Made by a program: the position numbers and the translations under genes. The notes below the pieces were generated by a model that saw only the letters and a program-made list of their open reading frames with translations, was not told the DNA's origin and searched no databases. DNA of 57,502 bases from Rotaria magnacalcarata (lineage: Eukaryota). Below are positions 1,601-54,755 of this stretch, one piece after another (position 1 is the stretch's first letter; every line of letters starts with the position of its first letter). The DNA lies in contig CBCSLL010000171.1 in NCBI GenBank assembly GCA_965140935.1, forward strand, positions 87,492 through 144,993, given 5' to 3'.

Positions 1601-3561
1601 CTTTATCCAAACCTAAACCTAGACAAACAATTTCACCGCGACGCATTGGCAATGTTGAGGATTTTACCATTCTATACATCAATCAAGATGAAGACAAAGA
1701 TCTGAGTCTTCTTCATTCTACAGTAAATTCTATACGTACAATTAGTGATTCAAGCACATTAGGAACATTGTTATCAGCATGCACAGAAGAAAAGTTCATT
1801 GTTGTGATGTCAATCAATCAAGCCGAAGTAGTTCTTTCCGAACTTCAACAGTACAAATGTATCCAATCAATTTATTTATTATCCAAACAGCCGCATCCAC
1901 CTGAATCGATCAATGGTTATGGTAATGCCATTGAGATTTATCGAAATATTGAATCAGTTTGTGATCATTTAATCAAAACATTGCGTCATATTCCTGCTCG
2001 AGTAATCCCAATGGAAATCACATCGAAAGATAGCGTTTCTGATTTACCATTTACTTACTGTCAACTTTTGAAAGAAACGATTCTTTGTCACGATGATGAA
2101 AGTGATTTAAGAAAAGATATGCTGACATTTTGTCGTACTCATTATGCCCATAATCAAGACGAAGTCCATGAAATCGATGAATATGAAAAATCCTTTATCG
2201 ACACGCATAGTATTCAATGGTATACACGCTATTGTTTCTTGACAAAAATATTATCACGCGCATTTCGCACGCAAGAAATTGATCTTTTATTTAAAATGCG
2301 TTATTTTATTCAATGTCTTCATAAACAAATTCAATCAATTGCTATCAAAGAACCGATCACTACTTATGCTATTTTATATGTTGAACAAGAAATCATTCGA
2401 AACTTTCAAGGAAATATTAATGGATTAGTTTTATTTCGTTCATTCCTTCCGGCAACATTCGAACGGCCCACATTGATGGAATATCAAAATAAAGACACAC
2501 AACGATATCTAATCTTTTCAATTCGACTTGGACCCGACTGTGCAGCTAATATTGAACAGTTGCGTAGCTCTGATTGCAAAATCGATGTTCTGATTAATAT
2601 TGATACTGTTTTTCGTGTAGTTTCCATTGATGAAGGCGAGAATGAAGTTCATACAGTCAACTTAGAGTCTGTTTCGCTCGATGATTCTCATTTTCAACAA
2701 CTAACTGAATCCTTACGAAAACAAATAAAAGCATCAGTGGTCATTTTACAATTAACAAAGCTTCTCGCAGAGACTGATCACTATTGGGAAGGTGATTATC
2801 TTACTGAATCAATTTATCAAGATAAATCTTTTGAGGGCGATGGGACATTGTTGGCTGGTTTAGCGGCTGCGCATCATCTTCTAGGCAATGTCGATGATGC
2901 CAAAAGAGATTTTGAAGCAGCACGTTATCAATTCTTTAAATCGTTACGCGCATTTCAATTATTTTTACCGTATAATCATTCACTGTTATCATCTAGTTAT
3001 AACAATATCGGTAGTATGTTCTATCAAGATGATCATCATGAATGTGCAGTTAAATTTCATGAAATGGCTCTTGAATGTCAATTAAAAGCATCAAGTCCTG
3101 ACATGGATGCTGTAGCAACATATTCGGCAAATATTGGCGCAGTTTATGTAGATCAAAAGAGCTATGCTGCAGCAACGAAACATCTAGAACGAGCAGCGAT
3201 GATCCTAGAGAAGATGTCAATGAAAGACAATCCAAAACGTTTGATTTCCATTTTTCAGAAAATTTCCAACTGCTTTTGGCGCACAGACGAACCCAAGCAA
3301 GCATTGGAATACTATAAGAAAACATTGGATCTTCAACTTAAATTAATAAATCCATTGCCACATCCATTGTCTGTCACTTATTATAATCTTTCAACTGCTT
3401 ATGTACGTATCGGTGACTACGATGAAGCTGTGACATGTGCAGAAAAATCAGTCGAATATTTGCGGATGATCTCAGAGAATCATCCAGAGTTGAAAGAAAA
3501 TCAAGCTCAATTGGAGATTGTTCGTCAAAAGCAATGGCTCAAACAAGTTCTCTCGACATAG
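1601..3561 (+). CDS. Terminal exon of gene A: shared N-terminal alpha/beta domain, then a degenerate (predicted catalytically dead) R-S-E ADP-ribosyltransferase-like domain, then C-terminal TPR repeats.
   Basis: A 653-codon open frame starts after acceptor ttattgcag at 1599-1600 and ends at TAG 3559-3561. It is paralogous to genes B and C in this window (IQSIYLLS~SIYIFCG; WYTRYCFLTKILSRA~WYTRETFIYRMLNAA). At the aligned ART motif positions it reads YVE / PAT / KID where B and C have YRG / STS / E-x-E. Classic TPR-like helices are present (SMFYQDDHHECAVKFHEMALECQLK; AYVRIGDYDEAVTCAEKSVEYL). Confidence 0.75.
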
Positions 3562-5590: not shown

Positions 5591-5671
5591 GGGTGTGGCT
5601 GTGACTGTTTGGGTGAGTACATTTTGGTTTCTATTGCCATATCAACCCATCCCCACACCCACACCACACCC
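5591..5671. repeat. Telomeric-repeat-like hairpin H1 (degenerate): G-rich arm gggtgtggctgtgactgtttgggtgag and C-rich arm caacccatccccacacccacaccacaccc.
   Basis: Inverted G/T-rich then C/A-rich arms read directly; complementarity is imperfect. Confidence 0.5.
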
Positions 5672-6125
5672 TATATTATTTGAATTAAGTCAATGTTCAA
5701 TAGGCTCACTTTATTCGTCTCAGTGAGAGCTGCAAAGGCGGCAGTATGTGCTTATAATTTTAAGCACTATTTGCTATTTTTTCCGCTGTTTATCAACAAA
5801 TTGAAAGGACTGACTTATATCATTTTGTATGCCGGAAGACCACCAGTAAAATGACCCTGTTAGATTTATGTTCTATACAAGACCTAAAGATATTATTACG
5901 AACGCACACTAAATACAATACAAATACCAATCTGAGCTCTGATAAGGGTAGATTCATTGTGAGGATTGTGTGTTTTACCTAACCACAGAACTCACGGAAA
6001 CGTTCTGCAATACTCCTTTTTTCTCACAGAAGTTCTCATTGAAAATCACACTGGCGAGTTTCTTCTCATCAGTAGAGCTCAATAGAGAGACGAAAGCTAA
6101 AATTCAATATACAAACTCAACGTCA

Positions 6126-6748
6126 ATGTCAGTCATCGAGAGTAAGGCAGAAAGTTTCGTTCTAATCTGGCTGGATCAAACTATCAAGAAGAACAAAGAT
6201 ACTGTTGATTCTGAACAAAAACTTCGTGCTATTGTCAATTCACTAGTTACTTGCCATACAATTAATGAAGCCATGGATTTGATCGAACAAGTTCAGGATC
6301 AGCAAATTTATTTGATCGTATCTGGCAAACTTGGAAAGCAAATTCTTTCAATGAATCAAATCGTCGACTCTTCTAAATTGAATTCTATCTATATCTTTTG
6401 TGGTGATCAAAACGAAAACAAAGAATTACTTCAACTCTCCAATAAAGTACGCGCCATCTTCGTTGAAATCGATCCATTATGTGCTCGTTTGAAAGACGAT
6501 ACAGAACAAGCGTTGAAAAATCTTCTACCTATGTCTACTACATCAGGAACTTCAGCGGACGAAAAAAATCAAGTGAAATTTCTCTGTTCACAACTTCATC
6601 GTGATCTACTTTTCACTATGGAGTACAGTAATAATGCAAGACTGGAACTCGCTGACTTTTGCTCCAGTGTATACAAATTGAGTCCGACTCAACTCAAGTG
6701 CATCCAGGAATTGAAAACTGAATATCATGCTGGCAAAGCAATCTGGTG
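6126..6748 (+). CDS. Gene B exon 1: shared N-terminal alpha/beta domain (FVLIWLD...IYLIVSG...SIYIFCG), ending ...KAIWW.
   Basis: ATG at 6126 within ORF 5970..6752. The donor tg|GTAAGA at 6749 splits the second Trp codon. This exon is homologous to exon 1 of gene C and to genes A and D. Confidence 0.6.
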
Positions 6749-7073
6749 GTAAGATAAACTTTTGAATGCTTTCATCAAATACTATTCATGATAAGACCTC
6801 ATTGATGAACTGTGTATTTCCTTATTTTAATCCTAACATCCATTTTGTGAAAGGTCAACACTTAGAGACGAAATCCGATCACATAAAAACACTCGCAGCT
6901 TCCGCTTATTAGGACGTATCAAACAGAATTTAAGCATCGCAATGGTTAGAAACGTCCACATATGATGGGTATTGACCTGTTTGAATCTTAATAATTCAGT
7001 TTCATGATAAATGGCAGAGTTGATCTGTATTGAATTACCGGAAATAGATAGGCAAAGATTCTTTGTCTTTTAG

Positions 7074-8523
7074 GTACACTCGACAAACATTTCTATTCAA
7101 AATGCTCAACACAGCTCTTTTGACTCAAGATATATCAATCTTATACAAGTTTCATTTTTTTATCAAAGATTTGCATATGCAACTGGAACAAATGCATAGT
7201 TTATACAAACCATCGTTGGAATCGCGTGTTTTTACTGTTTATCGTGGATTAAATATGTCCTCGGAAGATTTCGAGAAAACAATACGGGGCGAAATCAAGA
7301 ATTTAATTGCATTTGATAGTTTTCTTTCGACTAGTTTAGACGAAAATGTAGCCAAAGAATTTGCTTTGGATAAACAGGATCCTAAAAATGAGTCGGTTGT
7401 TTTTCATATGGAAATCGATGCTGATCAAACGGAACGGCCATTCGCGGATATATCTCGTTGGAGTAACTTTAAAAATGAACGTGAAGTTCTTTTCTCAATC
7501 GGAACTGTTTTTCGAATTGATGATGTAGCAAAGGAAAAAACAATTGATGGCATTTGGACAGTTCACTTAAGTACTGTCAGTGAAAAAGACGAACAATTAC
7601 AAAAGGAAACGCAACAAATACAAAGCACTCTATTAGAATTTTTCCAAGGTGTCCTTCATGCTCAACGCGAGGCTAAAGCTAAGTATGACGAGAAAATTCC
7701 CGGCAGCAATGCTAATGTAGCAAGTATGCATTACAAACAAGGCGAATACGAGGATAGCTTAATTTTCTATGAAAAAGCTTTGGAGGCTTTCAACAACTTA
7801 AAATCACCCGATCCATTGACAAAGGCAGCATATATCAGCAATGTTGCCAAGACACACATGTCATTGGGACACGATGATGCAGCTTTAAATTTATACAAAG
7901 ACGCTTTATATATTCGTCGTCGTTTGTGTGAGCCCAATGATCCGTCATTAATTCATACATTGCATACCATCGGTCATATTTATCGTGGGAAAAAAAATTG
8001 GAATGAAGCTTTTGAACAATATAACGAAGCATTAAAGCTACAACTGTTATCTATTGAGTCTTCTGGTTTATCGGATCCCTCGTCCATCGCTGTTACTTAC
8101 ATTTGTATTGGTAATATTTTTCATCATCAAGAGAGGTATCAAGAGGCGCTAGAATCATTTTTAGAAGCGCTCCAACAGCAACACAAGCATTTGTCGGAAC
8201 AGCATCCTTTTTTAGCATTTCTCTATAATAATATCGGTGCGATGTATTATAAAATTAAAAAATATGATTTAGCTTTGGAAAATCAACTCAAATGTTTGGA
8301 AATCGAATCAAAAGCACTACCAAAAGAGCACAAAACATTTGCTGAAACATATAAAAACATTGCCACAACATATGAAAAACGTCGACAATTCGATGAAGCA
8401 ATTGAATTCACCCAAAAATACATCGATCAATTAAAACTTCACGACTCAAAAGGTAGCAAAGAGCTCAATGATGCGATGCAATTGCTCAAAACAATTCAAA
8501 TAAGTCGAGACAATAGGAAGTAA
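7074..8523 (+). CDS. Gene B exon 2: arginine-type mono-ADP-ribosyltransferase domain with an intact R / S-T-S / E-x-E triad, followed by TPR repeats.
   Basis: Acceptor cttttAG at 7072-73 restores ...AIWW|YTRQTFLFKMLN, matching gene C where the same region is continuous. Motifs read FTVYRG, FLSTSLDE, RPFADIS and NEREVLF. The TPR block runs from about AKYDEKIPGSNANVASMHYKQGEYEDSLIFYEKALEAF to the end. Stop TAA at 8521-8523. Confidence 0.8.
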
Positions 8524-9071: not shown

Positions 9072-9118
9072 AGGGTGTGGGTGTAGGTATTGCAATGACC
9101 CTGCACACCCACACCCTC
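9072..9118. repeat. Telomeric-repeat hairpin H2: agggtgtgggtgtagg - tattgcaatgac - cctgcacacccacaccctc.
   Basis: Near-perfect 17-19 nt inverted arms of (GGGTGT)n-type repeat with a 12-nt loop. Lies between the convergent 3' ends of genes B and D. Confidence 0.75.
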
Positions 9119-9517: not shown

Positions 9518-11292
9518 TTATCTATTAGCTTCCCACCAGAAATAATTCGCTAAAGCATGACAAACTCTTTTGTAATCCAAAACCAATTGTTGCAATTCTG
9601 GTGAATCAGGTTGAAAATCTGAATGCAGTTGTTTTAGATGATCGATGCCAAATAATAATAATCTGTAGTTCAGTTCCTCAAAATTGATTATATCAAAAGT
9701 AATATTTTCAAATCTTTTCCTATAACGTCTAGTCCAACTAGTTGCAAATAAGCGATCTTCAGCAGGACAAAAAATTTTTATTTCTTCAAGATTAGGTGGT
9801 ATATTATCAACACTAGACAACCAGTGTTGGATGTTATCGTCATAACCAAATAGTGTAACCAGTTTTTGAAGATTTGTCTCTATATGATTTCGACATTGTA
9901 CTGTATCGTTGAAAACTCGAACAAAAGACATCAAATCAGAATTAGGTAATGGAATAGCTACAGCTACTCCATTCTGTTCGTAAAGTAGAAGAGTGAAATG
10001 GCTACCATTGTGGTAAACGTTATTGTTAAATTTAATAGTGTGAATACTTTGCATCTAAAATGAAGCATGGATAAAAATCTGGTTATGTGTACAAATTAAG
10101 CAAGAATATGCATATTGAATTTCTTTTGATGTAAAAATAAATGTTAAAAAACTTTAAAATAAGTTTATCAATGTATTTTCAGTTGTTTTGCATTGTTTTG
10201 GCATGACAATCAGGCTAATTTTGATATGACGGAGACGAGTATTGTTGTGCCATTAAGTGGTACGGTTTCATTTGTAGACACTGATTTGTATGCTTTTTTC
10301 AATTCGACATGGATTTGATTAGCTACTGCATTCTTTTCTTCCGCTAATGATGATTGATCGGATTCTAACAATTCCATTGATTCCTTTTTACAACATCGAT
10401 ATATTTCATCGGCCAATTGGAAGATGAGGTCTTCATCATTATCGAATCGTTTTCGATAATCGACTTTGTTTTTATCATTTTCTAATATGAAAATTGCTTC
10501 ACCATGTTCTAGTTCGCCTGCCATTCCAGCAGCACACTCACTACTTACAAAGAATAGCGTGGTCTTATTAGGCAGATGCTTTAAATCGAGAATTGAAGCA
10601 TGGGTTTTAATGATTATTGAATCTTTCATCAATAAACACAAACAATTTAACATGGCCGAGGCTCGTTTATTTAACCGTGTCAACAAGTCAATAAGAACAA
10701 ATTGAAAAGTAGTGAGACAAGCTAAACCAGAAATCATAATGTTTCATGTTGTTTATTTAACATGCAAGCGCATACCTGGCTCAATTTGTGTACGCTTCTT
10801 CCACGGATTCTCTATTTCAGATATGTAAGTACAATCATGTGATCGTTTTATAGCCACCTTATCAGATTTTGGTCTGCCCATCATTGCCGGATCCGTCAAA
10901 TTTCTCGATATTTGTTTTATGAGTTCGTTTTTGTCAGAACTGACAATGCGCACTTTTGGATACTTTTGTGCCCATCGATTCGAAGTTTTACGACCCCAAG
11001 AACATAAATAAATAGCAATGATGGATTGTGACTCGTGAAATTTTGGTATAATTTTATTTTGAAACTTATTAGACAGAATAAGAATAATCTGTTTCTGTGA
11101 CTTGTACGATTCGAACCACTGTTGAAATTGAACGCAATCAACGATTGAGGTAATATCGATATGATTTTGCTCTAAGTTTTGTATAACTGTTTGAATCCGA
11201 TCGCTTTGTTTAGCATTTGAATCGAGCCAAACAAATGCAAAATGTTTCAAAGTCTGTATTTCTTTCGTTGATATAGATGCAATGTCATCCAT
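9518..11292 (-). CDS. Gene D: truncated paralogue carrying only the N-terminal region of the ART-TPR family. Exons approx. 11292-10776, 10721-~10213, 10054-9518. It ends ...ANYFWWEANR* exactly where the ART domain begins in genes B and C.
   Basis: Three minus-strand ORFs. A 54-nt intron runs from donor cag|GTATGC to acceptor tggtttAG. The third exon begins at cattttAG|ATG. Sequence is homologous to the family (FAFVWLD...IILILS...IIAIYLCS; DYKRVCHALANYFWW~TEYHAGKAIWW). The exon 2/3 junction is not resolved. Confidence 0.5.
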
Positions 11293-14733: not shown

Positions 14734-14813
14734 GGGTGTGGGTGTGGGTGTGAACTCTGCATATGGATGTTCGTTTATCCAACCGTCACAACCATACTGA
14801 CACCCACACCCGC
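14734..14813. repeat. Telomeric-repeat hairpin H3: (gggtgt)3g ... cacccacacccgc. It abuts the right end of a foldback element.
   Basis: tttgggtgtgggtgtgggtgtg at 14731-14752 is complementary to cacccacacccgc at 14801-14813. Confidence 0.65.
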
Positions 14814-36217: not shown

Positions 36218-37348
36218 TTTAACTTGAAAAGGACATATTCTTGTTCAGCGTGAAATGCTGAATCAGAATATATCATCAATAACTTTTTAGACACTAACCG
36301 TCGCCTGGTAGGGCCTCTACAGTGGAGTCTTCAGAAACCCTAAGTACCCCTACTTCCAAACTTTTCACAGGTTTTATTTGTCATGCTAGAATCAATTTTT
36401 TATGCCAATCGACTCGTCAGATCATTCTGCACAAAACTATGCGAGTAGATTTTCGAAATTTTTTTTCTTGGTTGAGAAAATCGGATTTTACCAAAAACCT
36501 ATGCTAAAACGAAAATCTCACTTTTCTGCTTTTCCTTGATTTTCGAGATATGAAACCCAAAAGATTGCCAAGTAGGTAATCAAGCATGGAGAATTCAATG
36601 GACATCCTCCTGCAAGCTTTATATGGTTCTCTAGGGTTTTTGGAGGCACTTAGCAAGGTTTTTGGGTGATTTTTCGCCAAATTTTGGGGTTCATAAGACA
36701 CTGAGTATTGTGGAAGCTTACAAGCCCACCAATTTCGGTACTTAGTGCCGTTTCTTGCAGATTTTGACGTAAAACTTTTAGTTCCAGTAAATAATTTCTA
36801 TTATGCCTCGAAAGTCACAGCATTCGAAATCGATCTCCTGTGCATTTCTACACAAGAGAACCATTGAAAGTGAGAACTGCAGTGGCTCATCCGAAGCAGG
36901 TATTGATTCAGAAGCAAACGACAGAAGCTTGGAGCGGTCGACACAATTCATATAAGAAATTACAAATACTGATCTGCCTGTTTTGTTTGAACTTTGCTAG
37001 GCGAAATGCCCACTTATATATCTGACTGTTTTACCGTAGATGACTTTGCGCAATTTTTCGTTTTAGCATAGGTTTTTGGTAAAATCCGATTTTCTCAACC
37101 AAGAAAAAAAATTTCGAAAATCTACTCGCATAGTTTTGTGCAGAATGATCTGACAAGTCGATTGGCATAAAAAATTGATTCTAGCATGACAAATAAAACC
37201 TGTGAAAAGTTTGGAAGTAGGGGTACTTAGGGTTTCTGAAGACTCCACTGTAGAGGCCCTACCAGGCGACGGTTAGTGTCTAAAAAGTTATTGATGATAT
37301 ATTCTGATTCAGCATTTCACGCTGAACAAGAATATGTCCTTTTCAACT
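36218..37348. mobile_element. Second large foldback element from a different sequence family. Arms are ~36218-36515 and ~37052-37348 (~300 bp, near-identical) with a ~535-bp spacer.
   Basis: ORFs 36322..36507(+) and 37063..37248(-) encode the same 61-aa peptide, which is diagnostic of an inverted duplication. The arms were checked by eye (ttgaaaaggacatattcttgttcagcgtgaaatgctg... versus its reverse complement at 37290-37348). Confidence 0.85.
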
Positions 37349-38628
37349 TAAGAGTCATTCTCTGTAGGAATTACGGCCTTTGAGAAGTGACCCACCTCAG
37401 AATTGTCTGAAAATTTCAGGGTATAGGTAAAAAGTTGTCCTGATTCTAAAAATATAATTTTTTTAAAGTTCTCATTGGGAAAAAGAAGTTATGGCTACTG
37501 GACCATGACCAAAATGAGTATATATCGATTTTTTAAAAATTGTCTAAAAATATTTTTGATATGTCAGAAATGTAGAGCTCATCAAGCTGATCATTTTTAC
37601 ATTGGCCATATCTTTCTAAACCTTAAGCTTCAAGCGCTAATTCGTCTCTAAAGTAGACAAATATTAAGAATTTCACCTGTTTCCTCATATTTCACCATTA
37701 AAACTCAGCATAAGTACTACTTATAATACATGGATTTAATCATCTGACTTCCAACTACACGCTCATGTGTTTACCGACTCTTCAAGCCTCTCCCTTCGAA
37801 AGCTATACCGCAAAGAACATCGAAAAAGTGGAAAATAACGCACAACCTTACACTTGTTTCGGATTTTTCTAAAAAGGTATCAAATCAATGACTTTCAATC
37901 TAACAGAATCTTGTTCAGAATAGTCAACTCTACCGGAAACTGTGATTTAACAATTTAGAAAAAAGCGTCAAAAAAAAGTTCCTTTTAATATGGTTAGATC
38001 ACAATATCCAGAAATATCGCTAAAATATTTTGTAAACCGTCGCATTAATTTTTACAAGAGTGGAATAAAAAACCATGTATCACAGATTGTAGCGCGCCAT
38101 TTCTACTATTAGGATCTGTGTTTAGTTTTGTTTCCACTGTTACTTTATGTGGAAAATGTTTGGTAACTTGGAAAAAAAGTGGTACAAAAATAGACAAATG
38201 AGCAAATAATTCACCTTTTACATAGTGAATAAATATTTTCAGTCCAAAACTGATAACGGATTCAGAATCTACGTAGAAATCTACGTGCATAGCGTTAGTC
38301 TCTTACTCACCCACACGTACAACTACCTAACAACTGATAGATGAAAGTGCTTTACACAAGAATATATTTACATGTGTCAAATTTTGTTTTGTGTTCTGTA
38401 CAATGTTTCTTTGCTCCTAGAAGTGTTGTAATGTCCACTGACGGTAGAATGGTCATGTGGGAGAGGAGAAGAAAAAGAGAAAATAGCCAAGTTTCTTGTC
38501 GTTCTGCACACAATTTGACGTTAGAAAGAAAAATGTGTTTTTCTTGAAAATCGTTTGTTTTTGAGGATAATATTATTCACTTTTCAAAATCTTTACAACT
38601 TCTGTTGTTAGTATAAATTATTTATAAT

Positions 38629-39250
38629 TTGAACTCAAAGTTAAACAAAATAATGACAGGTCAAGATTCGAAATTTCAAAAGTGTTCCTTTTATGATCAT
38701 TTACACGATTTTGGTCCAAGTACAAAACCAAAAAGTTTTGACGTGGTTTCAATTGATCAATTGGAATCAAATGTACAACTGGGACTAGATTATGTCTCAG
38801 AATTTGATTTAATTGTTTCACGGTGTGGTGTATCAAATGTGGAAGTAACTGATATTCGAGAAATATGTGCAAAGCATCGATACAAATTCTGAATTTATTA
38901 CAAACTATCTCGTTGTTGTCAGCATCCCAACTGCATCAACAGATGTACTTCTTCAAAACATGCTTCGTTGAATCTGTCACGTTATGTTTCAACGAAATAT
39001 CGGTGCAAGTTTCCCATAAGTACTTTATTTTTAAATGTTAAACTGTTCATTAGTATTTCTGATTATTCGATGTTTTAGAAGGAAATATTTGTATGGTTTG
39101 TCGTGGTCAAGAAGAAAAAGTAATGAGAAGCACAAACTCTGACTCGGGCGGGCTATCTCCAATGGAAGAAGAGGCAGTGGAGGAAACTTTAACAAACTTC
39201 AAACAACGTCCAACAGATTTATACAATTTCCGGAACATTAAGAATCCACA
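38629..39250 (+). CDS. Candidate upstream exons (approx. 38629-38890?, 39076-39250) of the unknown-function gene whose large exon starts at 39734. They contain Cys/His-rich motifs (QKCSFYDHLHDFG; EGNICMVCRGQEE).
   Basis: Exon 39076-39250 ends ...NFRNIKNPHF + a (donor a|GTATGT), which is phase-compatible with acceptor catttAG at 39732-33. The exon joining 38890 to 39076 was not resolved. Confidence 0.3.
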
Positions 39251-39733
39251 TTTTAGTATGTTTATTCTTTGAAAATGCTTATATTTTTGAGTGATTGTTA
39301 CTTATTTTAATTCGGTGGATACATTTAATAATAAATAATAAAGAAAAGATTACCGAATAGATCATTTTTTATTAATGAGACGTTTCGTCAACAGGATTTA
39401 AACTTCAAACTTTCGTAAAGGAACTCGCGAAAAAGTTTGAGAAAAGGCTTTAGATGCTTTCGAAGGAAATGATCTTACGTGAGCACGACACATAGACTTA
39501 TTAAATCTAAATGTCTATTTTGCATGAACGTTTTCCAAGTTTATTTAGTAGCTCGATTTGGAGTATAATAAACTAATGGTGCAAAAATGACAGGTTCGAT
39601 CGAGGTTTTGCGCTTGATACAAAACCTTCATTTGAAGGAGTGTTCATTTGCGTTTATAGCACTGCCCATGCCAAACGGAAATGATTGTTTTCTCGCTAGA
39701 ATCGCTAATTTACTTATTCTTATTTCCATTTAG

Positions 39734-41631
39734 ATAACGATGAACTAAACAAGTCGTTTTCTGATCTCAGCACCACCACCAGTCAACAAAGTGTTGGGCA
39801 TGTATGGGAAGAAGAACTGTCTGGATCTCAAAAAGCAAACGTAAACGAAATTCGTTATCAAATAAATCCATCTTTGAATCCCATCATGTATCAAGTTAAA
39901 AATTCTCCGTTTACGACAAGCAAAAGAAAACAAAATATGTTAAAACAATCTCTTCTCTCTATTCTAAGGGAGTCCACTTCATTTTTTGCCAAAGCTTATT
40001 GTCCTGGTCATTCCAAAGAACTATTAGATTTATGTGAAGTTCCGACGTTTCTTCGTAAAGAACATGATACATTTTCGAACGATGATAAAATATTACAGTC
40101 GATAAAAGAAATTTATGGTAATAGTACGGACAGTCGATTAAAACTTCAGTTGTTATCTATCGTCGTAAAGAAAACTTACGCGCCTACCGATATTAAATCT
40201 GCATTCAACTGTAATGATTATATGATTACTCAAGCGATACAACATGGGTTAAACAACGGTTCCTGTTCTATTATACCGCGACAACATTTTCATCGTACTC
40301 GAGTCTCGTTTAACAGAATAAAACATTTTATGGATTTTCTATTCGATCATGATTTCGTACAGGACGTTGCGTACGGCACAACAAAAATTCGAACAATAAA
40401 TGAAGCGTTCACAATTCCGCTAGTCGTTAAAAAATGCATAAACTCTCATATCGTCTATGCCTATGATGAATACTGTCAACAAATTCCATTCGAACGTCTA
40501 TCAAAAAATTCATTATATCGTGTATTAAAGGAATGTAAAATGTCTCAACGAACATCGCTTGCTGGTCTTGATGATTACACTGCAGATGGACCAGAAAGCT
40601 TTGATGCACTAGAAAATCTCGTATCATCATTACCAGTTACAAAATCGAAACAGCAACGAATAATAACGCAATTACATAATGCCAAAAGATATTTAAAAAT
40701 CGGATTTTCCTTAAATTTATCGTTACAATCGAGTATTTCTTCACATTGTGTCGACTTTGCTCCTTCGGATTCTAATTCTAAAAGCGATTTTTATATTAAC
40801 TGTAATCATCACCACAGTCATCATTGTGAAAGCTGTGAAAATTTAGTCACAACACTCAGTCAAATAACAGAACTAATTCGGACGTCTAATAATTCAAAAA
40901 AAGAAGAATGGCAATATGATTGCACTGCAAGCATTAACAAAATTTATGAGTGGCAGAAACACCTTGTTCATCATTTTGCTCAATCCAAATCAAAAAATGA
41001 TATTTTGAAGAATCTTAAACCTGATGCAGCATTTTGGCTTAGAGATTGGAGCATGAAGGTATTACCTATAGAGTATCGTGAAAAGTCCAGCAATTGGTTC
41101 GGTAAACGAGGAATGTCACAAGAAGTTGACATTTTTTCTGTAACATCTGGAAGAACAACGAGTGATAATCAACAAATTCCATTAAAATATGTTTATTTGA
41201 CGATGCTTGATCAATCCAGTAAAGATATACACACCGTGGGCGCAGTGCCTGATCAGGTCCTGAAGCAATTTCATATTGATGCTCCACAAGTGAAAAATAT
41301 TTTAAGAAAGGACAATGCAACGTGTTATGCAGATGGTGCACAAATATATCTTACAAAATACATCTGTCAGCAAAACGGCTTTCAGTTGAAACGTATTGAT
41401 TTTAACGAAGCTGGTAAAGGAAAAGATCTATGCGACAGAGAAAGTGCATGCACAAAAACACATCGTGATTATTATGTATCTTCCGGACACAATGTTACTA
41501 CTGCTCTTGAAATGAAACAAGCTGCTAAGTCGAATGGAGGTGTCAAAGACACAAAAGTTGCAGTTGTCAATATCGAAGATAACGGTAAGAATAGTTCTAC
41601 TTTCGAACGCCTGGGTCTAGGCCATTGTTGA
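39734..41631 (+). CDS. Large terminal-region exon (about 630 codons) of a gene of unknown function. It has a His/Cys cluster (CNHHHSHHCESCENL) and a D...(33 aa)...E arrangement (RKDNATCYADGAQ...IDFNEAGKGKDLCD) faintly reminiscent of DDE/DD34E transposase cores.
   Basis: Long open frame. It continues in frame upstream of the annotated ORF start to acceptor AG 39732-33 (…DNDELNKSFSDLSTTTSQQSVGHVWEEEL…). Stop at 41629-41631. No confident homology was recognised. Confidence 0.55.
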
Positions 41632-42109
41632 GAAAACAACTGTTTTACTTGTTAGGATCCCTAATATAAGCGTTAAGAAAGCTATATAGCTCCAAGGATG
41701 TCTCTTCCTGACATGATAAAAAAACCAAAGCGATGAGGGTTGATTTATCCCGCTTCGAGAGCATCAAAATTAGAAACGTTTTACATTTCTGTTTGAACAT
41801 TTTAGAAAAAGCTTTAGGCTGCCAGTTGAGAAAGATACAGTGGCCAAATGGAATATTTAACGAAAAAGCACCACAAACTAATCATACAAAATCTTTTTTC
41901 TTTTAGAAAAGACACTAAAATTAGTTAAATTAAAAGACTCGACTCAATACCATAGTTATGAATTTGTTAATAACAATGTACGAGCATGGAGACAATATGC
42001 AACTGGTTCTGGTCATCTTCTAAAATTACCACTATTCGAACAATTAGAATTTAAGTCAGGACTGACGGTTATCAGTCCGTTTCCTCCAATTTTCTCTCAA
42101 GGAACCAGG

Positions 42110-42728
42110 TTGAATTCCGTAAAACAATCATCTCAACAAAGAAAACGATCATCAAAGAAATCGTCAGTTTTATTCTGCTCAGATTCACATTGTGTTTCAA
42201 CATTTGTTGATATCAAAGAACTTGAACAACATTTAAAAACCAACCAACATGGATATTTCCAAGACAATGCTGACTTGCAAAGTCTTCCAATCATAGAAAA
42301 AGCAAAGATTTATTTTATTGGTCATCTTAAAGGTGGTTCCAATATCGCTAATTCAACTCCACACTCTACTACATCGTCTTCTACCTCATCGGTAACGAAA
42401 AAGTCTCGCCCTAATTCGATTTGGATTGCTCAAGGTTGGGCACAACAAAAACGCTCACTAAGAGTTTCGTTATCGATACAACAAACCAAATTCTTAGACC
42501 AATTGTATGAACGTGGCGAAGAATCAAAAAAAAGTCTACCCAGCTGCAGCAGCAGATTTAATGCGAACAGAAATTGATAAAAAGAATAATAAACTATTTC
42601 GTCCTTATCAATACTTGAATAAAAAACGAATTACAAATTATTTTTCGTCGAAAAAAAGAAAATCACTTCAACGTTCATCAAGTGCGGTTGATGAAGTAAG
42701 TATAAGTTTCACCAGCAAGCTGCTTTAA
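42110..42728 (+). CDS. ORFs downstream of the 39734-41631 exon. They contain a C2H2-like zinc-finger-like motif (FCSDSHCVSTFVDIKELEQHLKTNQH) and a basic, Ser-rich tail. They may be separate exons or a separate gene, and there is a frame change between 42110..42577 and 42507..42728.
   Basis: Open frames only. The C-x4-C-x12-H-x5-H spacing fits a C2H2/U1-type zinc finger. The next feature downstream is a telomeric-repeat hairpin at 42790. Confidence 0.3.
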
Positions 42729-42789
42729 AAATGCTGTCTACTTTTTATTGGAGGATCATCACGATGATGAAGATGAAGAAGCTGCTCTT

Positions 42790-42878
42790 GAGGGTGTGGG
42801 TGTGGGTGTGACTAGATCGATACTCGCATTCCAGTCCCATATGCCACAAACCCACACTCATACCCACACCCACACCCC
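42790..42878. repeat. Telomeric-repeat hairpin H4: gagggtgtgggtgtgggtgtg - 48-bp core (actagatcgatactcgcattccagtcccatatgccacaaacccacac) - tcatacccacacccacacccc.
   Basis: Read directly. The internal core is shared with H6 at 48290-48366. Confidence 0.8.
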
Positions 42879-43262: not shown

Positions 43263-43336
43263 AGGGTGTGGGTGTCAGGGTGAGGGAGTCTTAATGAGAG
43301 ATTTGCATCCACTCGACACCCACACCCACACCTCAG
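43263..43336. repeat. Telomeric-repeat hairpin H5: agggtgtgggtgtcagggtgaggg ... cgacacccacacccacacctc.
   Basis: Inverted (GGGTGT)n/(ACACCC)n arms with a ~30-nt spacer. Confidence 0.7.
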
Positions 43337-44735: not shown

Positions 44736-44770
44736 ATATATATATATATATATATATAAATGTATATATG
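44736..44770. repeat. (TA)n microsatellite.
   Basis: Read directly. Confidence 0.9.
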
Positions 44771-44893
44771 ACAGGACTTAATTTTATTCATTCTATTTCG
44801 AGTTTCGAATATAAAATGTTTTTACGGTGTGTGTTTATCACTCGAAAAGATTAAATGTATGTTCACATCGAATTGCATATGAATGTAGACTGG

Positions 44894-44973
44894 GTCTCGA
44901 TAGCTTAGTTGATTAAAACGTCTGGCTAGTTACCAGAGTGGATACTACCTGGGTTCGATTCCCAGTCGAGGTT
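44894..44973 (+). tRNA. tRNA-like pol III gene with atypical features: an 11-nt variable region, a D-stem mismatch and G18-A19 in the D-loop. The anticodon loop is CTAGTTA, so the anticodon would be AGT (Thr) by position. It may be a diverged tRNA, a pseudogene or a tRNA-derived element.
   Basis: Acceptor GTCTCGA pairs with TCGAGGT (5 Watson-Crick + 2 G-U pairs). Anticodon stem TCTGG/CCAGA. T-arm CTGGG-TTCGATT-CCCAG gives a GGTTCGATTCC box-B-like element. The gene is followed directly by the T-rich run tcgTTTTcTTTTc at 44974-44986, consistent with a pol III terminator. Confidence 0.45.
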
Positions 44974-44986
44974 CGTTTTCTTTTCT
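44974..44986 (+). terminator. Oligo-T pol III terminator after the tRNA-like gene.
   Basis: TTTT then TTTT within 13 nt immediately 3' of the acceptor stem. Confidence 0.4.
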
Positions 44987-45410
44987 TTGTGTTCGTTCTT
45001 TCGTGTGATAAACACACGCCGTAAAAAATCATCTTTTATTCGAAATTCGAAACAGAATGAAACCGAAATTATTTTCAATGTTATATACTTAACAACGAGA
45101 CCTAGCTGCTAATCTACCTCGTTATTTTTATTCCGCTTTATTTAAAATAATGTAACAACGGTTTCAATGAGACCCCATTTAGAAAGCACTTATCCACCAG
45201 AAATGGACGGGTTTCAGGGAAATGGCCTGTAAAATTTGGCGATTTCTTCGTCTTTACGAGAAACCAGCTTTTCTTTTTAAAAGCATACCTCTGTGGGACT
45301 ATGGATAAGGTTCAAAGTGAAAACATTTCCACTCACACCCTCTAGTCGTGAATGGCTTGTTTTCTTTTGAACCATTTCTAGACTTTGAATTTGGAGGATT
45401 TTTTCTCTAA

Positions 45411-45878
45411 ATGGGTTGTAACCATGGTAAGTTTGTCACAACAGCAGTCGTTGTCAACCAAAGCAGTGCATCTCCTGCCATCGATATCCAGCACAACGAA
45501 CCACCAGTCGTAACAGGTGAAACTCGTTTCACCACAACAGCTGATAGTACAATCCTTATCAACGATGAAAAGATTAACCTTGAATCGCATCAGTTAGTAT
45601 GGTTAGATGAAAAGACAAGCGAGCAGATTAGTGAAAATATAGTTACCATTGAAAGTCTACGTAAAATTGTCGATTACACGAAGTTATTTGATAATGTTGA
45701 AGAATGTCGGCAGTACCTTGAGAATTCGAAAGATCATAATGACATATTCTTAGTAACGTCTGGTCAGTCAGGAGAGAAGTTGATACCTGAAGTTCATCGT
45801 CTTCAAAATGTGTTGTTAATCTATGTTTATTGTCAAGATAAAGAATATCATGAACAATGGGCATCAAAATATCAAAAG
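45411..45878 (+). CDS. Gene C exon 1: N-terminal MGC (potential N-myristoylation/palmitoylation) motif, then the shared N-terminal alpha/beta domain (LVWLD...IFLVTSG...VLLIYVYC).
   Basis: ATG at 45411 (MGCNHGKFVTT...). Donor AAG|GTAAAAG at 45879 is phase 0. Homologous to exon 1 of gene B. Confidence 0.7.
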
Positions 45879-45943
45879 GTAAAAGAGTTGTGAGCTTTCT
45901 TACGAGAGGGTGACTAGATCTCTTATATTCTGCATGCACACAG

Positions 45944-47869
45944 GTCAAGAAAGTTCATGGGATACTTGATCAATTATTAATGGAGCTTAGAGAAGACGTT
46001 CAAAATTATTCGAAATCTGTAAGAGGTGGCGTATCTAACACCCCGATGAAATCACAAAAAAGCACAGACGACAGTTTCGCCTGGTGCACAAGATTTTGTA
46101 ATATTTTGGTTCATCTGCCCTTTCCTCAAACTTGTCACGATAGACTTGTAAATTTCTTGAAAAACTATTATAAGAACAACGAAGTAGAATTGAAATATGT
46201 AGAAGAATTTCACCGTGACTACACACCAAAGCAAGCAATCTGGTGGTATACACGTGAAACATTTATTTATCGCATGCTTAACGCTGCCCTACGTCAATGC
46301 GACATTAAAACCATCGTTCTATTTGGGTTTTTCATTCAAGATGTATATCATCAATTGAAAGAAGAACATAAAAAGTTCCTACTTTTATACCCAAAAGATT
46401 CGATCATAAAATGTTATCGTGGGCAAGTAATGTCGTATCAAGAACTCCGCCAACTAGACTTCCAAGATGGAGGACCAAAAACAATCGTGAACACCAGTTT
46501 ATTTTCAACATCAATAAATCGCGATGTACCGTTCCGTTTTCTGTCTAATGTAATCAATCTACAACAGTTGGAATATGTCATTTTTGAAATTGAAGTCGAT
46601 ACTCGTTTGCAAACTCGACCCTTTGCTGATATTTCACATTTGAGTGCTTGCTCAGACGAATCTGAAATATTATTTATGATCGGCGCATGGCTTCTTATCG
46701 AAAGAAATGGTGTTTCGTACTCGTATGAAGACAATAAGAAAATTTGGACTATTAAGTCCACCCTAACCAACGACTGGCAACTGAAATACGAGCAATATCT
46801 CGAAATGACGACACAAAAGGAACATTTACAAAAGTGTCTCCGTAGAATATCTTTGCACATTTATCATGCGACACCCAATGACGTAGAGGTGGCTTTCAAC
46901 GAACTACTTGATTTATATCCGTCTGAAAGATGGATTTTAGCACTGAAGAAAGAAAGTCTTGGTGATAATCAAAGCGAAATAAGCCATAACCGTTCAGCCG
47001 CTTTAGAATATTATCAAAAAGCATTAGAAATCTGGTCTGAATACGTTAACGATGATGAATTGAATGCCGATTATGATATTGTTCGTATCTATTGGAAAAT
47101 TGCCACAAATAATGCAGATTCCATAATGGCTATGAAGTACAGTGATTTAGCCATTGTGCATAGCCAACCGGCGTTCGCAAAAGTTAGCACGAATTACGAA
47201 CGATATAGGTTACATGGATGGATGGCTGTTATATATAAAGAAAAAGCAAACATTAGCACTGGGGACAGCGAGAAATCAGAAAATTTGCTAGCGACCATCA
47301 AATACACCGAATTACAACTAAACAATCTGATCGAGTTGCAATGTACCACAGCGGTTGGCAACTATGACAATCTCACTGCTCTTTGTTACATAGAGTTAGG
47401 TGCCCTTTATCAATCCGTATTGAAATATAACGAAGCAATAACAAACTATGGAAAGGCTCTGGAATTTGAGCTGGCGAAGCTAGACCCTGATTATGAGAGA
47501 ATCGATCAACTTACTAGGGAATTAGTTGAAATTTACAGTGAAAAGAAAAATGATTATAATGCCGCATTTAAGTATGAATCATTAAACCATGAGTATTTAT
47601 TAAAACAATACATGGCAAATCCAACAAAGGATTATCTTCGCGAAGCCAATAGGAACTATACACTAGCCTGTAGTTACGCTGCCTTAGCTACGATTTGTCG
47701 GAAAATGCAGCGATATGATTTAGCGGCTGAAAATTTAACCAAAACAATCGAATCATATGGGAACAGTTTGCACTATGATAGGTACGCATTAATGTCAGCC
47801 CACGAAGATGATTTGATGGAAATAAACAAATTGTTAGCATCATCGAAGTCTGCAGAACCAACATCATAA
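45944..47869 (+). CDS. Gene C exon 2: arginine-type ADP-ribosyltransferase domain with an intact R/STS/ExE triad, followed by TPR repeats.
   Basis: Acceptor cacacAG at 45942-43. Motifs read AIWWYTRETFIYRMLNAAL, CYRGQ, SLFSTSINRD, RPFADISHLS and SDESEILF. TPR-like helices run across the C-terminal 330 aa (…SAALEYYQKALEIWSEY…LGALYQSVLKYNEAITNYGKALEFE…). Stop at 47867-47869. Confidence 0.8.
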   Translation, partial: VKKVHGILDQLLMELREDVQNYSKSVRGGVSNTPMKSQKSTDDSFAWCTRFCNILVHLPFPQTCHDRLVNFLKNYYKNNEVELKYVEEFHRDYTPKQAIWWYTRETFIYRMLNAALRQCDIKTIVLFGFFIQDVYHQLKEEHKKFLLLYPKDSIIKCYRGQVMSYQELRQLDFQDGGPKTIVNTSLFSTSINRDVPFRFLSNVINLQQLEYVIFEIEVDTRLQTRPFADISHLSACSDESEILFMIGAWLLIERNGVSYSYEDNKKIWTIKSTLTNDWQLKYEQYLEMTTQKEHLQKCLRRISLHIYHATPNDVEVAFNELLDLYPSERWILALKKESLGDNQSEISHNRSAALEYYQKALEIWSEYVNDDELNADYDIVRIYWKIATNNADSIMAMKYSDLAIVHSQPAFAKVSTNYERYRLHGWMAVIYKEKANISTGDSEKSENLLATIKYTELQLNNLIELQCTTAVGNYDNLTALCYIELGALYQSVLKYNEAITNYGKALEFELAKLDPDYERIDQLTRELVEIYSEKKNDYNAAFKYESLNHEYLLKQYMANPTKDYLREANRNYTLACSYAALATICRKMQRYDLAAENLTKTIESYGNSLHYDRYALMSAHEDDLMEINKLLASSKSAEPTS

Positions 47870-48289: not shown

Positions 48290-48366
48290 GGGTGTGGGTG
48301 TGACTAGATCGATACTCGCATTCCAGTCCCATATGCCACAAACCCACACCCACACCCACACCCATG
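48290..48366. repeat. Telomeric-repeat hairpin H6: a near-identical copy of H4 (same 48-bp core) with a different repeat number in the arms.
   Basis: agggtgtgggtgtg-actagatcgatactcgcattccagtcccatatgccacaaacccacac-ccacacccacacccatg. Confidence 0.8.
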
Positions 48367-49127: not shown

Positions 49128-49186
49128 ACGGTGTGGGTGTCGGATAGTGTGCCAACTGCTATTATTGTCCATCCCCACACCCGTCA
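49128..49186. repeat. Telomeric-repeat hairpin H7: gacggtgtgggtgtcgg ... ccatccccacacccgtc. It directly abuts a 150-bp direct repeat.
   Basis: The inverted arms include the gacgg/ccgtc termini. Confidence 0.65.
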
Positions 49187-49335
49187 AATAATAGCTTCAC
49201 TAATCGATTTATTTAATTCAAATTCCTGGAAAGGTTTACCTGAATTAACAAATGCAAATAGAAAATTTTGTCCTTATTCATGTTTTATTCATTGTTGTTC
49301 TTGCGCAACTATTTTAAAAGCTTTTATATTCTATT
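49186..49335. repeat. Direct repeat copy 1 (~150 bp, ~90% identical to 51718-51865). It begins right at the end of hairpin H7.
   Basis: gtcaaataatagcttcactaatcgatttattta...aaattttgtccttattcatgtt...tgcgcaactattttaaaagc versus caaataatagcttcactaatcgatttatttattta...aaattttgtccttattcatgtt...tgtgcaactgttttagaagc. Confidence 0.75.
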
Positions 49336-50070
49336 TAGAATGTAATAATGGGTTGCTTATAACATCAGCATTTTTACACTAAATGTTAAAGTCTTTTCTA
49401 CTTGTTTAGAAGAATTAAATCTAATGTATCATCTAGCTGTATCTGAATTTTCAGTACTGGTATGTGATTTATATTAACACTATAATAATAGTGACATTGT
49501 ACTGCGACGTATATCACCAACTCATTCCGAATATGAAATGGTTGATGAACATACAATTCTCAAAGCACCACAGTAAATAAAGTTTCGATTCATTTTGCTG
49601 GTGCGCCTTTTAATTTAAATATAAAAATAATATCTATTTCGAAGTAGTTTTTCAAAAGTATCTGGTTTGTTGGTTTAGTATCTCTAATATTTTTCTCGAA
49701 CAATATTCGTTTGAGAACTCCAGTAAGTAATTTAAAATGATAGAAAAATTGACTGTTCTCCTTATACAACATCTGACAGCTACCGTTATCTATCGCATGA
49801 AACTTACGCTTTTTAGAAAAAAGTAATATAATTTAAAAATGTGTTGGCCTACTATAATTCCCGTCAGTTCTTTTTCGCGAGAAAAACATTGAAAAAAAAA
49901 GAAAATACTTTCATTAGTGGATTTCGACACCGATTGGAATTTGCTATGGCTTTTATCACTAGCTCGCACACACACTACTAGTAGTACCATATTAAAAATA
50001 CAAAACGTTGTTTGTGAGTGTCGTGTACTCGCGGTCTCATTTCTTTCTTTTGCAGTTGAACCATCATAGT

Positions 50071-51465
50071 ATGGAGGAAGATCTCAAGAATGATTTACCA
50101 AGTTCTCCGACTTTACTTTATTCAAGTACGACTTCAGTAAGTTCTTTTAGTGATACCATCACATTTTTCTTGTTAAGCGCATTTTCATTTTGGTTCCTTC
50201 AGTCTGAAGAAGAAATACCAATTCCGCGTCCTCGAAATTCATCTTTAGATATAACAACAACGTCTCCAACAACACTATCATCATATGCAATGTCGTTTTC
50301 TGAAACTAAAGAATTAAACAGTAAGAATATTTTCATCTTAATGTTTACTTTTTTTTGCATATAACTTGACGATTGCTGTTTGCTATTCATCTTATTTCAG
50401 AGGTAATATTACCGTATCCATTACGGCTGGATTCAAACTATATCTATCGAATCGGACTAAAACCTAATGAATTTATTCATTATTGTCAAACTGATCAAAT
50501 AGAATCAATGTTTGATGATCCGATGGACCTTATCGATAATTTTCTACAAGATCGTTTGAGAAAAGGTTTGGATATAGGCGTTCATCAAGAATGTTTAGAT
50601 CATTTAAATTATGTCAAACAAATCTACGATGATAATGAATCATTACTAGATTACGTTTATGATTATATTGAAGCACAAATTATGAAGCTGATCAATGCTC
50701 CTGGTTTTGAATCAGTACCTGATAATCAATGGTCTACAATTTTGTATCCTACATTTGACACATCAACATTAGCATCAATTGATTATTCCCTAAATGTTTA
50801 TATGAATCGGTCTGCTTTTAATCGGCGTACAACTAAAAATCTGAACGTGTTCGATTTATTAGCATCAATGCAAACAGAGGATGTTCGTAACATCCGTTTG
50901 TATCACGGTACAGATGTTGAAGCACTTAAGAAAATTTGTCAATATGGTATAAGTTTATACTCATCTCATCGTCTTGGAACTGATTTTGGCGCAGGATTCT
51001 ACGTAACAGATAATTTTGAAGGTGAGAGTCTGATTGTTGCTAATGGAGAAGTTCAAATTATTGTTCTTTTTAGACGCTGCACATATTGCAGCTTCAAAAG
51101 GAGCTCGTAATAAATTATTAGCGGGTATTATTTGTTTTCAACTTGCTGAATCTGAACTTAGTCAATTGAATATTCGAGATTTACCTGATACAATCGACAA
51201 TTCTGGTGATCCATTGTCATGGTCGAATTTTGTGAAGTTATGTCGAAGTCGCTACAATGAATGTCCACATAAATTTCGTTGTGACGCTTTACGTGGTCCA
51301 ATGTGCAACAATGCTGAAAAAGTTCGTTTATTTGAGAATGAACGACCACGGGCAAAGATTATCAACAATAGAAAAGTTACTCAAATATGCATTAAAAGTA
51401 CGCTTCTCTCATCAAAATTAGAAGCTGCAATTTTTGGATTATATATTTTTAATGCTGAATCATAA
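50071..51465 (+). CDS. Four-exon gene (50071-50136, 50203-50320, 50401-51021, 51074-51465). The protein is of unknown function and carries a candidate H-Y-E (diphtheria-toxin/PARP-type) ART-like motif set: RLYHGT ... GAGFYVTDNF ... (FQLAESE?).
   Basis: ATG at 50071; donors GTAAGT at 50137, GTAAGA at 50321 and GTGAGA at 51022; acceptors at 50201-02, 50399-400 and 51072-73; phases consistent (0/1/1). The H-G-T and G-x-G-F-Y spacing (~30 aa) resembles the H-G-S ... Y motifs of PARP/DT-type ARTs. The assignment is tentative. Confidence 0.55.
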
Positions 51466-51717
51466 TGTTTTTTTTTGTAAGTTTTTCCTAAAAAGTCATC
51501 TTGTATTTACTTCATTAGATGAGATATTTCAATAAAGTCATATTTAAAGGTTATACATTCTTGACTATATATTCTCTTTTTAAGTATTTTCTCATTATCT
51601 ATTATCATAATGGTTCTAAATGGATATGGTTAACTGGTCATTATTCAAGAGCAAAACTTTATTGGTAAAAAAAGCAAGATGATTGAATTATTCAAAACAA
51701 ACAATAAAACATGTTCG

Positions 51718-51865
51718 TCAAATAATAGCTTCACTAATCGATTTATTTATTTATTTCAAATTCCTGGAAATGTTTACCCGTATTAACAAATGCAGATAGA
51801 AAATTTTGTCCTTATTCATGTTTCATTCATTGTTGCTCTTGTGCAACTGTTTTAGAAGCTTTGTA
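51718..51865. repeat. Direct repeat copy 2. The pair brackets the 4-exon gene at 50071-51465.
   Basis: See copy 1. Confidence 0.75.
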
Positions 51866-53683: not shown

Positions 53684-53722
53684 GTCCATCTAATCCCTCT
53701 TCATACCCACACCCACACCCTG
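53684..53722. repeat. Telomeric-repeat hairpin H8: gatgtgggtgtccatc ... catacccacacccacaccctg.
   Basis: Short inverted GGGTGT/ACACCC arms. Confidence 0.55.
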
Positions 53723-54688: not shown

Positions 54689-54755
54689 GAGGGTGTGGGT
54701 GTGTGGCTGTTGATGGTGCTGCAGCTCTGAATGACCACCCACACCCACACCCTCA
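54689..54755. repeat. Telomeric-repeat hairpin H9: cttgagggtgtgggtgtgtggctg ... ccacccacacccacaccctcaag.
   Basis: The 20+ nt inverted arms include the cttgaggg terminus, which is also present at H4. Confidence 0.75.

Follow-up and report, generated by a model that had tools for sequence, protein, structure and literature searches.

A tRNA-Thr(AGU)-like gene between inverted arms in Rotaria magnacalcarata, read as a degenerating nuclear gene copy

The bdelloid rotifer Rotaria magnacalcarata carries a tRNA-like gene in the loop of an inverted repeat, which raises the question of what such a locus is. A first-pass annotation of the sequence described it as an atypical tRNA-like pol III gene and offered candidate explanations: a diverged functional tRNA, a tRNA-derived SINE- or MITE-like element, or a pseudogene. 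We analysed the whole stretch of DNA in which the locus lies, 57,502 nt (57.5 kb) of contig CBCSLL010000171.1 from assembly GCA_965140935.1, hereafter the window. Our reading, held with moderate confidence, is that the element is a lineage-restricted, degenerating nuclear tRNA-Thr(AGU) gene copy that is possibly still transcribed.

ARAGORN called a single tRNA in the whole window, tRNA-Thr(agt), at 44894-44974 on the + strand. The Rfam model RF00005 matched 44894-44973 over its full length (model positions 1-71) with 39.1 bits and an E-value of 8.8e-05 for the window, exceeding the gathering score of 29 bits, while no other Rfam family came near its own threshold between 43.5 and 46.5 kb. Both programs had been proposed as checks and, since both match, the objection that tRNA predictors would give no hit does not apply. 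The matches fall between inverted arms of 61 and 63 nt, which bears out the basic description of a tRNA-like gene in an inverted-repeat loop. The parts of the gene are given below.

44894-44973, + strand: tRNA-Thr(AGU)-like gene, 80 nt including the discriminator U73 (the ARAGORN call ends one base later, at 44974)
44894-44900 / 44966-44972, + strand: acceptor stem, GUCUCGA / UCGAGGU, seven pairs closed by G1.U72 and U2.G71
44901-44902, + strand: positions 8-9, U8 and A9
44903-44906 / 44916-44919, + strand: D stem, GCUU / AAAC, with the mismatch C11.A24 at 44904/44918, flagged by Infernal
44907-44915, + strand: D loop, AGUUGAUUA, G18 kept and A instead of G19 (44911-44912)
44921-44925 / 44933-44937, + strand: anticodon stem, UCUGG / CCAGA
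44926-44932, + strand: anticodon loop, CUAGUUA, with U33, anticodon AGU at 44928-44930, and U37 (T at 44931)
44938-44948, + strand: variable region, GTGGATACTAC / GUGGAUACUAC, 11 nt, an insert relative to the Rfam model
44949-44965, + strand: T arm, CUGGG-UUCGAUU-CCCAG
44973, + strand: discriminator, U73

The structure that had been listed at first pass, namely the T arm, the anticodon arm, the acceptor stem closed by G-U pairs, and the oligo-T terminator, was recovered in full from the sequence, Rfam, and ARAGORN readings, and the anticodon AGT was confirmed by ARAGORN at 44928-44930. The oddities noted alongside it (an 11-nt variable region, C11.A24, G18-A19, and T at position 37) are likewise all present. 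In the cloverleaf, all four stems pair, with C11.A24 as the sole non-standard pair and two G.U pairs in the acceptor stem. ViennaRNA likewise gives a cloverleaf as the minimum-energy fold and pairs the variable region into a small hairpin of 4 bp (GUGG/CUAC) closed by a 3-nt loop; in the ARAGORN drawing, the variable region is unpaired.

That small predicted stem is what would suggest a variable-arm tRNA similar to the nematode nev-tRNAs, in which the extra arm would redirect charging to serine or leucine while the anticodon reads threonine codons. Under the class II and nev-tRNA criteria, the variable arm has at least 13 nt and a stable stem and the discriminator is A73 (Leu, nev) or G73 (Ser); all 115 nev-tRNAs and tRNA-Leu carry A73, and tRNA-Ser carries G73 (PMC3333845). 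The discriminator here is U73 rather than either of these, and the 11 nt of the variable region are shorter than class II variable arms, so the defining features of such tRNAs are absent. Given also the unpaired region drawn by ARAGORN and the single, non-conserved copy, we consider this reading very improbable.

The score of the gene is low. At 39.1 bits it lies below 28 of 29 comparison tRNAs (range 38.0-71.3, median 59.4), a set found on unrelated metagenome contigs and scored with the same Rfam model, in which the three lowest scorers are themselves odd. Among 65 reference tRNAs called by ARAGORN, a haphazard set, 63 have a purine at position 37 and none has a U. Among the class I core features, G18 is present; G19, a purine at position 37, and a 4-5-nt variable loop are not. 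The G19-C56 pair, which A19 removes, locks the elbow of the tRNA L shape, and A37 in ANN-decoding tRNAs, those for threonine included, carries the modification t6A. The usual class I variable loop has 4-5 nt. In those bacteria and yeast that have been examined, ThrRS identity rests on the first acceptor pairs along with G35 and U36.

Judged from sequence, the combined core changes (A19, C11.A24, U37, the two terminal G.U pairs, and the 11-nt variable loop) would normally disable a cytosolic tRNA, the yardstick for damage being what generally holds for tRNAs and the Rfam consensus rather than the true parental rotifer tRNA-Thr(AGU). Several independent functional elements are altered at the same time, with helices and pol III promoter preserved, which is the usual look of a young to middle-aged tRNA pseudogene. 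Nevertheless, such a pattern does not prove loss of function, and the four paired stems with a single mismatch, together with the cloverleaf as the predicted minimum-energy fold, count against decay. The putative changes would run mostly from G:C to A:T in a genome of 34% G+C, a direction for which the parental sequence is required.

The metagenome contigs also yielded a few unusual tRNAs of their own. One contig (L033, 46-117) encodes a 72-nt class-I-shaped tRNA with the serine anticodon AGA and no long variable arm, scoring 43.4 bits. On three low-GC contigs (L013, 98-169; L025, 2056-2127; L045, 170-241) we observed UAA-reading suppressor-type tRNAs with anticodon UUA, each followed by oligo-T, which presumably derive from a eukaryote with a reassigned stop codon. 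All four are unrelated to the Rotaria gene.

The signals for transcription by pol III lie within and directly behind the gene.

44901-44912, + strand: A-box-like element (tRNA positions 8-19), TAGCTTAGTTGA, matching the consensus except for A replacing G19 (sequence inspection)
44952-44962, + strand: B box within the T arm, GGTTCGATTCC, a perfect consensus and the sole exact match in the window
44976-44984, + strand: pol III terminator, TTTTCTTTT, two T4 runs (44976-44979 and 44981-44984), the first starting 3 nt past the discriminator

The A-box consensus is TRGCNNAGTGG. The 3' end of the gene reads ...GAGGTT-CG-TTTT, without an encoded CCA. The absence of CCA, taken with a terminator of its own, marks the sequence as a genomic gene copy, and a retro-copied mature tRNA was rejected on the missing 3' CCA. 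The tRNA-derived SINE proposed at first pass was also rejected: the terminator follows 3 nt after the discriminator, the gene has neither a SINE body nor a tail, be it A-rich or of simple repeats, and we found no target-site duplication or further copies. An origin as a NUMT, or from an organelle or a bacterium, was dropped given A34, the canonical T loop, and the pol III terminators, which indicate a nuclear gene of eukaryotic type. The predicted pol III transcript starts downstream of the left arm of the inverted repeat and ends before the right arm; as the arms lie outside it, any action of theirs would be at the level of DNA rather than RNA.

The palindrome itself spans 275 bp (44787-45061) and consists of the left arm, a 151-nt loop holding the tRNA gene, and the right arm.

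44736-44769, no strand: (AT)17 microsatellite adjoining the left arm (Tandem Repeats Finder), context outside the repeat
44787-44847, no strand: left arm of the inverted repeat, 61 nt (repeat search and alignment)
44848-44893, + strand: spacer from the left arm to the tRNA 5' end, 46 nt, putative pol III upstream region
44999-45061, no strand: right arm, 63 nt, reverse complement of the left arm

The arms are complementary at 55 of 61 aligned positions (90%), with one additional 2-nt indel, in keeping with the ~62-bp arms described before. The gene does lie between them, as had been said; its placement is symmetrical only in an approximate sense, with a spacer of 46 nt 5' of the gene and one of 25 nt 3' of it. 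Probes of 19 and 24 nt taken from the arms matched nothing in the 57.5-kb window except the two arms themselves, with 0.01 matches expected from shuffles. Folded as DNA, a 333-nt stretch reached -64.5 kcal/mol, against -27.9 +/- 3.4 for shuffled sequences (z = -10.8). An outward extension of the arms to 44765/45087 was rejected because 705 of 2000 shuffles scored equally well. The adjoining (AT)17 microsatellite differs in length among R. magnacalcarata assemblies (indel at 44735).

We read the arms as a ~10%-diverged relic without a demonstrated functional link to the tRNA. With this divergence, the age of the locus would suffice for a gene of 80 nt to have picked up a few neutral changes.

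The tRNA locus is set among mobile units that together form a mosaic. Upstream, the apparent 'gene' at ~37.3-42.8 kb is a transposon whose long ends are inverted. Positions 38291-42787 of the window match short contigs of Rotaria sp. Silwood1 and Silwood2 at 80-89% identity, and in those contigs an inverted copy of 37346-38395 comes after the position equivalent to 42787. In the window, the homology breaks off at 42787 and a run of the bdelloid telomere repeat begins five bases further on; telomere-repeat sequence takes the place of the transposon's right end. The protein annotated here as 'C2H2-type domain' is a 585-aa ORF (39874-41631) with no Pfam match; given the Silwood homology with the inverted copy at its end, it is probably a transposon gene. 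A 297-nt inverted repeat (36219-36515 / 37055-37351), with arms 99% complementary and a 539-nt spacer, adjoins the transposon.

Small hairpin-like elements built from the telomere repeat form a family of at least seven members (44-86 nt) in the window, all between ORFs. One end of each carries (GGGTGT)2-3 and the opposite end (ACACCC)2-3, the bdelloid telomere repeat in inverted runs, around a centre of 20-50 nt whose sequence varies among most copies. Matches numbered 24, against 0.02 expected from shuffles. Searched with an exact pattern, the elements occurred only in R. magnacalcarata loci, with none in the R. socialis and Silwood loci or in the two contigs (L005 and L006) that carry the nearest relatives of the gene downstream of the tRNA. 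These elements and the ORFs of the family to which that gene belongs are located as follows.

5591-5666: telomere-repeat hairpin
9073-9116: telomere-repeat hairpin
14734-14811: telomere-repeat hairpin
42792-42877: telomere-repeat hairpin
43264-43333: telomere-repeat hairpin
48290-48363: telomere-repeat hairpin
54691-54752: telomere-repeat hairpin
49129-49140: telomere-repeat half-site
53703-53720: telomere-repeat half-site
1768-3561: ART/TPR-family ORF
5970-8523: ART/TPR-family ORF
9518-11292 (minus strand): ART/TPR-family ORF
45411-47869: ART/TPR-family ORF, the ART-TPR family gene directly downstream of the tRNA locus

Two 75-nt hairpins that are 97% identical (42798-42872 and 48290-48364) bracket a 5.5-kb segment containing the tRNA, the palindrome, and the ART-TPR gene. 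The window holds a cluster of paralogous, nearly intron-free long ORFs of the ADP-ribosyltransferase/TPR family, which is expanded in bdelloids. Further downstream lies a PARP/DUF3990 gene (49182-51862) flanked by direct repeats (49207-49324 and 51745-51862) that are 92% identical. The same gene with its flanking repeats occurs in R. socialis at 93% DNA identity among different neighbours, with a caspase-family gene upstream, which suggests from sequence comparison that it is a relocatable, repeat-bounded cassette. The palindrome around the tRNA is a further sign of heavy rearrangement in this region.

The position of the tRNA gene, downstream of the transposon and 437 bp upstream of the ART-TPR start codon, brings up the idea that a pol III/TFIIIC site has been kept for a role at the DNA level, for example as a boundary between the two. 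Transfer RNA genes and isolated B boxes can serve as boundary elements in yeast and mammals, and by analogy a B box that is perfect despite a damaged tRNA core would fit such a role. However, the B box overlaps the T arm, the slowest-decaying part of young tRNA pseudogenes, and its integrity is therefore not diagnostic; comparative evidence adds nothing positive. We regard a boundary function as quite improbable.

To see how far the locus extends beyond this assembly, we turn to its relatives. The protein encoded by the downstream ART-TPR gene has a 100% identical counterpart in R. magnacalcarata, in line with the origin of the window in this bdelloid. The tRNA and the arms are present in eight other R. 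magnacalcarata assemblies at 99-100% identity. Contig CBCPNL020000224.1 of assembly GCA_965120345.2 matches the locus at 100%. Across 8 kb, the assemblies differ by only ~25 substitutions, one of which falls within the element, at 44812 in the left arm. Given the very low diversity of the whole region, identity within the species is uninformative on selection, and with one SNP in the element a polymorphism test for constraint has no power.

Outside the species, the nearest relatives of the downstream ART-TPR gene are those on L005, an ENA metagenome contig (73%), and L006, a Logan contig (70%). Their neighbours differ from those in the window, they resemble the window at the DNA level only from ~10 nt ahead of the ATG onward, and both lack an upstream tRNA. 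No orthologous intergenic region was recovered through the neighbourhoods of the ART-TPR gene, the upstream ORF, or the PARP gene. Neither the tRNA nor the arms occurred again in the rest of the window, in L005/L006, or in the loci of R. socialis and Rotaria sp. Silwood1/Silwood2.

Pattern searches gave a similar picture. The anticodon arm combined with the T arm had no matches in viral or metagenome contigs. The T arm combined with the 3' acceptor strand matched 36 metagenome contigs, all with unrelated tRNAs, which were rejected as parent genes because the acceptor-stem match was forced by the pattern. Matches to the D-arm motif in viral contigs were rejected as canonical Thr(AGU) genes, being mostly phage tRNA-Met. 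The inverted-arm pattern had no viral match, and its three matches in prokaryote genomes (bacteria) were rejected as chance. An ORF translated across the right arm had no real homologue among 1.84 billion representative proteins and no exact cluster; its two matches were spurious and of low complexity.

These searches bear on the possibility that the palindrome is a non-autonomous DNA element, either a MITE or of the foldback type; its arms would then be terminal inverted repeats recognised by a transposase, and its cargo the tRNA gene. Long and significant inverted arms (61/63 nt), a small size (275 bp), a lack of coding capacity, and transposon-rich mosaic surroundings are all as expected of such an element. 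However, no target-site duplication is present at 44787/45061, only AT-rich coincidences of 2-4 nt at shifted boundaries, and the right-arm translation has no real homologue in the protein collection. The further copies of the arms that the first-pass annotation had suggested looking for were not encountered in the window, the ~120 kb of rotifer loci, or the viral, metagenome, and prokaryote collections. Thus, of the MITE-like explanation the inverted repeat stands, and a target-site duplication and a second copy are missing from the sequences searched. As the copy search covered ~120 kb of rotifer sequence and JGI metagenomes possibly poor in Rotaria DNA, the copy-number test is weak, and for this reason a mobile palindrome is still the main rival, though in our judgement an unlikely one.

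The comparison among assemblies and relatives also bears on whether the gene might be a functional, minor tRNA-Thr(AGU) isodecoder that tolerates the enlarged variable loop and U37, the inverted repeat being incidental. A score above the Rfam gathering threshold, the ARAGORN call, the cloverleaf as minimum-energy fold, and an intact A box, B box, and terminator speak for it, as does the retention of an unchanged tRNA across nine assemblies. This last identity, however, simply mirrors the low regional diversity (~25 substitutions in 8 kb). Moreover, the score falls in the bottom tail of the comparison set, the gene combines a pyrimidine at 37 with the loss of G19, a mismatched D stem, and two G.U pairs at the acceptor end, and the nearest relatives of its neighbour lack it upstream. 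We consider a working isodecoder rather unlikely. The low score, damage to positions that are nearly universal, and the lack of a tRNA upstream of the relatives in L005/L006 weaken the diverged functional tRNA of the first-pass annotation. A pseudogene, the last of the explanations offered there, fits best among them and falls short of proof.

In the scenario that we favour, a nuclear tRNA-Thr(AGU) gene copy of genomic origin would be decaying within the R. magnacalcarata lineage. Going by the promoter and terminator sequences, binding by TFIIIC and pol III has probably persisted, and the locus probably yields a short transcript that stops at the T runs. The element would most likely be a pseudogene, or at best a marginal tRNA. 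Its arms may have arisen from a foldback or MITE-like DNA element that enclosed the gene, or from a local inverted duplication of the gene's flank. For annotation, the consequence is that this one low-scoring call of tRNA-Thr(AGU) is best marked in R. magnacalcarata as a probable pseudogene.

It is a slim prospect that the locus is something more novel: the first foldback element seen to spread a pol III gene in bdelloids, a transcribed tRNA-like RNA (with U37 and an intermediate variable arm) put to a non-canonical use, for instance in changed decoding or charging, or a boundary element bound by TFIIIC. The locus would matter more if the whole genome held a family of palindromes carrying pol III genes. 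The same holds if the RNA were mature and charged: it would then be a rare case of a natural tRNA that combines a position-37 pyrimidine with a variable arm intermediate in length.

Among known systems, the nematode nev-tRNAs resemble the gene in a variable region that exceeds that of class I and in an anticodon that is neither Leu nor Ser, and differ in having A73 rather than U73, a full class II arm rather than 11 nt, and a Leu-like backbone where that of the gene looks Thr-like (PMC3333845). They also differ in that the gene here is a single copy and not conserved. With MITEs and foldback elements, the palindrome shares its shortness, lack of coding sequence, and long inverted arms; unlike them, it shows no target-site duplication and no other copies were found, and its loop contains a complete pol III gene with a terminator of its own. 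Like tRNA-derived SINEs, it contains tRNA-related sequence with A and B boxes, whereas an unrelated body, a tail, a target-site duplication, and further copies are absent and the terminator stands next to the tRNA.

Eukaryotic nuclear tRNA-Thr(AGU) genes share with it the cloverleaf, the anticodon AGU with A34, U33, U8, A14, G18, and the T loop UUCGAUU, as well as A and B boxes inside the gene, a terminator of oligo-T, and a 3' end that does not encode CCA. In contrast to them, it has A19, C11.A24, U37, G1.U72, U2.G71, and a variable region of 11 instead of 5 nt, and it scores 39 bits where the comparison tRNAs have a median of 59. Its T arm and D-arm pattern presumably resemble those of metazoan Thr(AGU) genes, a likeness that we did not use as evidence. 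With tRNA pseudogenes, the gene has in common a low covariance-model score, a T arm and B box that outlast the nucleotides of tertiary interactions, restriction to one lineage, and a position among transposons. It departs from the usual tRNA pseudogene in its almost fully intact stems and in the long inverted repeat that flanks it.
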